Assembly (NCBI GenBank): GCA_965250285.1
Contig: OZ252299.1
Coordinates: forward strand, 736,001-800,000
DNA from: Myxococcota bacterium
GTDB taxonomy: Bacteria; Myxococcota_A; UBA9160; UBA4427
Direction of reading: 5' to 3'
Length of the DNA: 64,000 nt
Shown here: positions 22,879 to 23,181 of the stretch, one piece after another
How the letters are laid out: the number at the start of each line of letters is the position of its first letter
Numbering within the stretch: position 1 is the first letter of the stretch
Program-made: the position numbers and the translations under genes
Notes under the pieces: generated by a model
What the model saw: the letters and a program-made list of their open reading frames with translations, nothing else
What the model was told of the DNA's origin: nothing
The model's database searches: none

Positions 22879-23181
22879 ATGATTCGTCGATTCCGACTCG
22901 TGCTGGGCACCCTGGCGATGCTGATCATGGTGGCTTCGGCCGCGTGGGCCGAGCCCGTCACCTACGTTCTCGAGACACCCGGCGTCGTCTGAGGCGGCAC
23001 CTCTCAGAGGGCCCGTGCGGCCGTCGAACAGCTCGATCACGTCTCCGCCGTCAGCACCGACATGAACGCCCACACGGTGACCGTCACCTTCGATGACGAT
23101 CAGACCGATGTCAGCGCGATCGTCGCGGCGCTGAACGACGCAGGGTACGTCGTCAAGAAGCAGCAGAAGCAGATCGAATAG
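22879..23181 (+). CDS. secreted HMA (MerP/CopZ-like) protein with in-frame TGA; probable selenoprotein (UGGT)
   Basis: GGAGG RBS and signal peptide; TPGVV-TGA(22990-22992)-GGTSQRARAAVEQLDHVSAVSTDMNAHTVTVTFDDDQTDVSAIVAALNDAGY continues the HMA fold to TAG 23181. Confidence 0.7.

Follow-up and report, generated by a model that had tools for sequence, protein, structure and literature searches.

A secreted HMA-fold protein with a single U-x-x-T/S site: a very probable selenoprotein family

Introduction

The closest described relatives of the protein reported here are metal-binding HMA proteins. MerP (TIGR02052; PDB 1osd and 1afi) combines a signal peptide with one HMA domain, whose CxxC site provides two Cys. 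The CopZ/Atx1 proteins (NF033795, TIGR00003; PDB 2qif) are cytosolic and use CxxC, and copper carriers hold the metal in a linear bis-thiolate site (PMC7558416, in the part available to us).

Selenoproteins made from heavy-metal transport parts have also been described. Table 1 of a catalogue of 119 selenoprotein families published in 2026 (PMC13188914) contains NF041115 (UxxU_metal_bind), a small HMA-like domain listed as "putative mercuric reductase" with two Sec in a UxxU motif, together with a MerT-type C/SxxU protein, a UxxC cation-transporting (P1B) ATPase, and MbdU. Among these, NF041115 and the UxxC ATPase are HMA-fold selenoproteins with Sec in the same motif as the protein described below. 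The catalogue also lists UxxT and UxxS motifs for selenoproteins of the GPx-like, OsmC-like, and arsenate reductase types.

The locus described here lies in a window of 64,000 nt, i.e., the whole stretch of DNA analysed, to which all positions refer unless a contig or locus is named. A first reading of this sequence (the original prediction) had proposed a hidden selenoprotein gene, encoding a secreted HMA domain in which an in-frame TGA replaces the first Cys of the metal-binding motif. It had also stated that Sec-containing HMA-like proteins exist, which the described UxxU, UxxC, and MerT-fusion selenoproteins bear out. Here, we describe the gene, its orthologues, and the fold of its predicted product, and weigh the possible functions of a site with a single chalcogen.

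Results

The gene and its predicted product

The reading frame opens with an ATG at position 22879, reaches the TGA in the context PGVV-TGA-GGT, and continues for 62 sense codons to a TAG stop at 23179-23181 (Table 1). The ribosome-binding site, the signal peptide, the TGA context, and the downstream frame were all found where the original prediction had placed them. The signal peptide was judged by a simple heuristic rather than a dedicated predictor, and 111 out of 116 distinct family members passed the same test. Among 16 aligned orthologues, Ala24 was invariant and a purine-rich, RBS-like stretch was recognized by eye upstream of every start. Moreover, residues 8-91 of the query matched positions 4-87 of the signal-bearing MerP model. 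GC content at codon positions 1, 2, and 3 was 0.68, 0.46, and 0.81 before the TGA versus 0.66, 0.39, and 0.85 after it.

Table 1. Features of the candidate selenoprotein gene, with positions in the window
Feature	Position	Strand	Description
RBS GGAGG	22868..22872	+	6 nt upstream of the ATG; read from the sequence
Candidate selenoprotein gene	22879..23181	+	Predicted 100-residue secreted HMA-fold product, with UGA read as Sec
Predicted signal peptide, residues 1-24	22879..22950	+	Basic start, hydrophobic core, A-W-A cleavage motif
Mature HMA-fold domain	22951..23178	+	Pfam PF00403, structure model, fold matches
In-frame TGA, predicted Sec38	22990..22992	+	At the column of the first CxxC Cys in HMA domains
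Thr41 in place of the second Cys	22999..23001	+	Hydroxyl residue throughout; helix 42-50 follows immediately
Predicted SECIS hairpin GAG-GGCC-CGTGC-GGCC-GTC	23007..23025	+	Conservation; apical loop 23014-23018, G then U
D61-M62-x-x-H65 turn, family-specific	23059..23073	+	Candidate second-shell or extra ligand residues

Gene callers cut the gene at the internal TGA, and public protein sets contain only fragments that start after the UGA; here, the called product was 56 residues long and started after the TGA. A word-based protein search returned three fragments and a genome-contig scan one locus, both being limited by the TGA. In the genome of the window (G000), the gene is present as a single copy, and the only other HMA match is a P-type ATPase.

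Conservation of the in-frame TGA

Fifteen orthologues were found by protein search among 60 relatives, all with TGA at the same column; the search also returned two weak, unrelated HMA matches. Across the class, profile matches were obtained in 40 out of 225 genomes, belonging to 23 genera, with one in-frame TGA in 39 of them and none in the remaining one. When distinct genome-derived orthologues were collected by protein search alone (n = 33), the Sec column held TGA in 32 and TGT in one, which excludes a private nonsense mutation, the objection that the original prediction had itself raised.

The TGT orthologue (L182:1495-1791, minus strand) belongs to genome G470 and retains an intact SECIS hairpin. 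Genome G471, of the same genus, carries TGA, and selA is present in both. Together they form a predicted Sec/Cys pair, which may reflect a recent change from Sec to Cys or an assembly error.

In a phylum sample of 401 genomes, the 12 strong matches all fell within the order of the window, and roughly one in five genomes of one order carried the family. A DNA-pattern search yielded 119 metagenome loci, 118 of which were family members by translation; as the pattern fixed both the TGA and the loop, these loci show spread, not conservation.

Purifying selection was detected on both sides of the codon, with a pN/pS of 0.28 before the TGA and 0.53 after the hairpin (33 sequences, not independent owing to kinship). 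The terminal stop codon was itself TGA in 10 out of 16 orthologues, so UGA is still a stop there and only the SECIS-flanked UGA would be read through.

Two divergent forms were also observed. Locus L178, from the selA-bearing genome G429 of the same order, encodes the same protein as P0044. This locus represents a divergent form with a single Cys (GVSCSGS) and lacks the hairpin; G429 has no Sec form. In the secreted HMA protein P0127, the motif reads PGCVWPGT, Trp taking the Sec column and Cys standing two residues ahead of it. The gene caller may have translated a UGA as Trp here, in which case P0127 would represent a C-x-U-x-x-T sister family.

The predicted SECIS hairpin

The original prediction had offered two stems downstream of the TGA. 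One of them, GGCC-CGTGC-GGCC at 23010-23022, proved to be conserved and was extended to 23007-23025. The other, GGCGGC paired with GCCGTC, was rejected, as it was not conserved and the third positions of codons 39-40 varied freely. The retained hairpin is 19 nt long, at a spacing of 21 nt past the UGA, with a 5-nt loop (CGUGC), an upper stem of 4 bp plus two further pairs, and a folding energy of -10.6 kcal/mol. Its loop size, the G then U, the spacing, and the energy agree with the bacterial model given in the accessible part of PMC13188914.

Synonymous divergence (pS) among the 33 orthologues was 0.62 before the UGA, fell to 0.10 in codons +6 to +11, and returned to 0.64 thereafter. Ala45 was encoded by GCC in all 33 and Arg46 by CGT in 32, CGT accounting for only 8.5% of the Arg codons in G000. 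The three inner pairs of the hairpin were kept in 33/33 sequences and the outer pair exhibited compensatory changes (G-C, U-A, A-U, and C-G); one pair was mismatched in 18 out of the 33. The covariation score, determined on 16 sequences whose kinship inflates it, exceeded those of all 500 shuffles and of each of the six slid controls. The region of the window folded alone was no more stable than its shuffles (z from -0.21 to +1.04), and the SECIS assignment is therefore based on conservation, not on energy. An Rfam search of positions 19000-27000 gave no matches, and scanning the whole genome for this loop motif downstream of TGA gave too many chance matches to be informative. The other selenoprotein genes of G000 had hairpins at a similar spacing with different loop sequences.

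Sec machinery and other selenoprotein genes

The Sec machinery that the original prediction presupposed was present in G000 (6.25 Mb, 95% complete), with selA, selB, and selD above curated cut-offs and a tRNA-Sec (selC). The SelD match (G000:C1:5312234-5313154, minus strand) has no in-frame stop and lies within a 781-codon frame, and is therefore probably a Cys-type fusion SelD. Among 61 genomes, selA was detected in all 16 carriers of the gene (in one case split over two contigs), and none of the six genomes without selA had an orthologue. The gene was found in just 16 of the 55 selA-bearing relatives.

In G000, an in-frame TGA was observed in 8 out of 21 AhpC-TSA matches (G000:C1 1311505, 2320460, 2346227, 2490323, 3754623, 3873714, 4424399, and 4544160) and in both UGSC matches (G000:C1 2261707 and 3019995). 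The motifs at these sites are UxxC or UxxF, a hairpin lies downstream in every case, and by these predicted genes G000 is a selenoprotein-rich genome.

Fold and motif

The read-through product matched the Pfam HMA model PF00403 with 47.1 bits (gathering cut-off 24.8). When aligned with the solved MerP and CopA domains, U38 took the position of the first Cys of CxxC and T41 that of the second, and the window protein contained no Cys, so that the motif is as the original prediction had described it. The structure model had a pLDDT of 85.8 and the element order E27-32, H42-50, E55-61, E66-71, H78-87, E94-98 (E, strand; H, helix), i.e., the ferredoxin-like fold that characterizes HMA domains, here in a predicted structure. 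The best Foldseek matches were MerP (1osd) and CopZ (2qif), and the top VIA-align matches were HMA domains, among them an ATP7B domain (Z 11.9, rmsd 2.1, 72 aligned residues).

Instead of the two-chalcogen CxxC site of HMA domains, the family has U-x-x-T/S. Position 41 was Thr in 27 of the 33 genome orthologues and Ser in the other six; in the wider alignment, Thr (89) and Ser (21) made up all but one of the 111 rows, the last one being misaligned. Cys was absent from the mature part of all 114 members considered, three with run-on or chimeric ends having been dropped. In the family-specific turn, D61 was found in 105, M62 in 107, and H65 in 105 of the 111 rows. The D-x3-H pattern was also present in 10 out of the 13 nearest non-Sec relatives, versus none of 12 CxxC proteins.

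A profile search of 1.84 billion representatives was used to place the family among its relatives. The best 150 matches contained 32 proteins of 85-135 residues; 12 of these had CxxC and 20 did not, the latter being mostly single-Cys proteins with Thr or Ser at +3. In a tree built on the mature domains (69 columns, midpoint root), these 20 proteins and 20 sampled Sec rows lay on one side of a branch and the 12 CxxC rows on the other (support 98/89). Since the Sec and single-Cys proteins share a branch apart from the CxxC proteins, the one-chalcogen site appears to be a kept feature, not decay. Three secreted relatives on the same branch (P0016, P0018, and P0092) exhibited no chalcogen (Ser, Asn, or Asp) and an intact HMA domain.

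Genomic context and expression

The gene is preceded by a sodium:solute symporter gene (20673-22616, plus strand) and followed by a zinc-ribbon adenylate cyclase/AAA gene (23460-26723, plus strand). An operon with either was rejected, given gaps of about 260 and 280 nt, respectively, and neighbours that are not conserved beside the orthologues. No sigma-70 promoter or terminator match was found for the gene. A DsbB-like gene is located at 14049-14924 (minus strand).

Seventy-five neighbour ORFs of the orthologues were scanned, mostly the nearest on each side. A Pfam family was assigned to 57, mostly from lipid and general metabolism, and none of the 75 was a sel gene or belonged to a copper- or mercury-handling family. 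G000, at 95% completeness, had no MerT and no MerA above the cut-off. Across the order, no positive co-occurrence was seen with MerT (3/39 carriers versus 8/154), NosZ-like proteins (9/39 versus 67/154), or cytochrome c552 (5/39 versus 25/154), these counts being drawn from incomplete genomes that are not independent by kinship.

At seven metagenome loci (L044, L062, L088, L097, L105, L108, and L109), the gene lay 100-160 nt past a multiheme cytochrome c552 nitrite reductase gene, which at L088 encodes a CxxCK motif, and was directly followed by an aldo/keto reductase gene with a twin-arginine-like leader and a C-terminal Cys cluster. This sub-clade probably belongs to another lineage. A role as chaperone for the nitrite reductase was rejected for the order on the co-occurrence counts given above; three c552 matches scored as containing one TGA had it as their true C-terminal stop. 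Single cases among the loci scanned were an arsenite methyltransferase (ArsM) gene next to the family member (L017:610-1416) and an adjoining encapsulin-associated ferritin-like gene (L036:977-1279).

In one metatranscriptome, two 151-nt RNA contigs covered positions 22874-23173 at a depth of 2; one of them ran across an intact TGA and differed at three places within the signal region. This is a weak hint of transcription, at low depth and unknown strand, from a run found with this same stretch, and DNA carry-over is possible. Runs X1 and X3 belong to one study, X1 being perhaps the source of the window, and so give no independent support, and run X5 covers the upstream gene only. The absence of RNA cover elsewhere in the surrounding 20 kb does not rank expression.

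Comparison with described families

The window protein matched 14 NCBIfam models, in each case with a score under the cut-off. MerP was its best NCBIfam and Foldseek match: the two share their architecture and length, and U38, T41, M62, and Y90 align with the two Cys, the Phe, and the Tyr of MerP. However, the protein scored 58 bits against 92.55, has no CxxC, and does not lie in a mer operon. A MerP identity was ruled out by the absence of mer genes nearby, the lack of conserved neighbours, and the rarity of MerT among carriers. CopZ has the same predicted fold, but differs in that the window protein has a signal peptide and no CxxC (39 versus 91 and 36.7 versus 62 bits).

NF041115 resembles the family in being a small HMA-like domain whose metal-binding motif contains Sec, and all 16 aligned members matched its model weakly; the window protein, however, combines one Sec with Thr/Ser instead of having two Sec, and reached 29 bits against a cut-off of 95. 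The MerT/CopZ fusion selenoprotein (NF045683) and the UxxC ATPase are likewise selenoproteins from heavy-metal transport parts, but they are membrane proteins, whereas the window protein is free-standing and 100 residues long. Its match to NF045683 covered only model positions 149-226 of 235 (32.5 bits, cut-off 375), the MerT-like part being absent. The UxxT/UxxS redox selenoproteins share a single Sec and a hydroxyl residue at +3, with a helix following the motif, as is usual in that group; their folds are unrelated, and here the motif is found on an HMA domain.

No HMA-fold UxxT/S family appears in Table 1 of the 119-family catalogue (PMC13188914). The "MerP" selenoprotein of PMC2398784, as far as that source was available, is a different sequence, and UGGT/UGGS is absent from its four supplements. 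Likewise, the family is not mentioned in the available text of 10.1101/2022.07.06.499078 or PMC13326102. The open literature searched gave no description of a U-x-x-T/S HMA family, and a prior naming is possible.

Discussion

The TGA kept among orthologues, the Sec/Cys pair, the frozen hairpin, the Sec machinery, and the presence of selA in all carriers indicate that UGA is almost certainly recoded as Sec in a secreted HMA-fold protein. It could be objected that Sec is so far predicted, that the hairpin alone is no more stable than shuffles, and that gene callers give a product starting after the TGA. The codon would then be a true stop, or be read as Cys or Trp, leaving a pseudogene or a short peptide; alternatively, the 221-codon antisense frame at 22558-23223 would be the real gene. 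This is very improbable and close to refuted, as members from 23 genera share this TGA, purifying selection acts on the codons to either side of it, and UGA still serves as a stop in most of the aligned orthologues. The antisense frame was itself rejected, having no Pfam match and a length that varies widely among orthologues. The U-x-x-T/S HMA proteins are, on this sequence evidence, very likely a real and uncatalogued selenoprotein family, set apart from the known HMA-fold selenoproteins by their single chalcogen.

The original prediction had coupled the recoding, now well supported, with a periplasmic role in metal or selenium handling. That role was inferred and drew no support from neighbours or co-occurrence, and a redox function is a live rival to it. 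We tentatively favour, at somewhat less than an even chance, a predicted secreted MerP/CopZ-fold protein whose single, exposed selenolate would capture or carry soft metals, such as Cu(I), Ag(I), or Hg, in the periplasm. SelB would bind the GU loop 21 nt past the UGA and Sec would be inserted; after export, the signal peptide would be cleaved after Ala24. The selenolate, which by general Sec chemistry is ionised at periplasmic pH, would then hold the metal and be its sole soft ligand. Thr41 may cap the helix or stabilise the selenolate, and the remaining coordination might come from His65/Met62, from another copy of the protein, or from the thiol of a partner. The protein would act alone, outside any mer or cop operon.

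This soft-metal role is preferred because metal carriers share both the fold and the position taken by Sec: the closest matches of known structure, by sequence and by fold, are HMA domains that bind metal, and Sec stands at a metal-ligand position. A shared fold alone, however, shows no function. With a single chalcogen, a linear bis-thiolate site is impossible within one chain, which counts against metal carriage, as do the lack of metal-handling neighbours and of positive co-occurrence and the three chalcogen-free relatives on the branch. The missing second thiol and the missing metal-handling context, together with the UxxT motif, place a redox role close behind.

Under that alternative, which we consider possible but rather unlikely, the protein is recoded and secreted as above, and Sec serves in redox chemistry: as the selenol of a U-x-x-T motif that opens a helix, it would reduce periplasmic peroxides or mixed disulfides and be recycled by an outside reductant, with His65/Asp61 as possible acid-base helpers. 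The +3 hydroxyl, kept in all genome orthologues, precedes helix 42-50, D-x3-H marks the branch, and the host is rich in redox selenoproteins of the AhpC-TSA and UGSC types. However, Ser and Thr are common as helix-cap residues, which could account for position 41, and the protein has neither a resolving Cys nor a conserved redox neighbour. To our knowledge, there is no HMA-fold peroxidase. On the other hand, Table 1 of PMC13188914 assigns UxxT/UxxS motifs to selenoproteins of the GPx-like, OsmC-like, and arsenate-reductase types. In a broader and more doubtful version, the whole exported HMA branch (Sec, single-Cys, and Cys-x-Sec forms) would have given up two-ligand metal carriage for selenol-based redox catalysis in the periplasm, Sec38, Thr41, His65, and Asp61 forming the active site; if true, that branch would be an enzyme on a fold known for metal carriage.

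A scavenger of one-coordinate organometals such as methylmercury, whose selenolate would bind them near-irreversibly before cell entry, seems improbable. Methylmercury is one-coordinate, a single soft ligand being enough for it, so that one very soft ligand on a MerP-like fold would suit CH3Hg+. Selenoproteins linked to organometallic chemistry have also been proposed (10.1101/2022.07.06.499078, in its available part). No mer genes lie nearby, however, MerT is rare among carriers, and ArsM adjoins one scanned locus only. Slightly less probable still is a periplasmic selenium carrier or store, in which Sec or its perselenide would keep selenium and pass it on. Selenium use by the host is high and the protein is small, exported, and equipped with one reactive residue, but one Sec per 76 residues makes a poor store, most selA-bearing relatives do not have the gene, Cys forms exist, and no sel gene was found among the scanned neighbours.

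Whether the soft-metal role or a redox role applies, the family extends a natural series on one small fold, comprising CxxC, CxxT/S, UxxT/S, UxxU, and forms with no chalcogen. This series lets one ask whether a single Sec brings metal affinity or redox catalysis to a periplasmic protein. The TGA/TGT pair of G471 and G470 is a ready control within one genus, and the 76-residue mature protein, with one predicted selenolate, would offer a simple system in which to study Se-Hg or Se-Cu binding.
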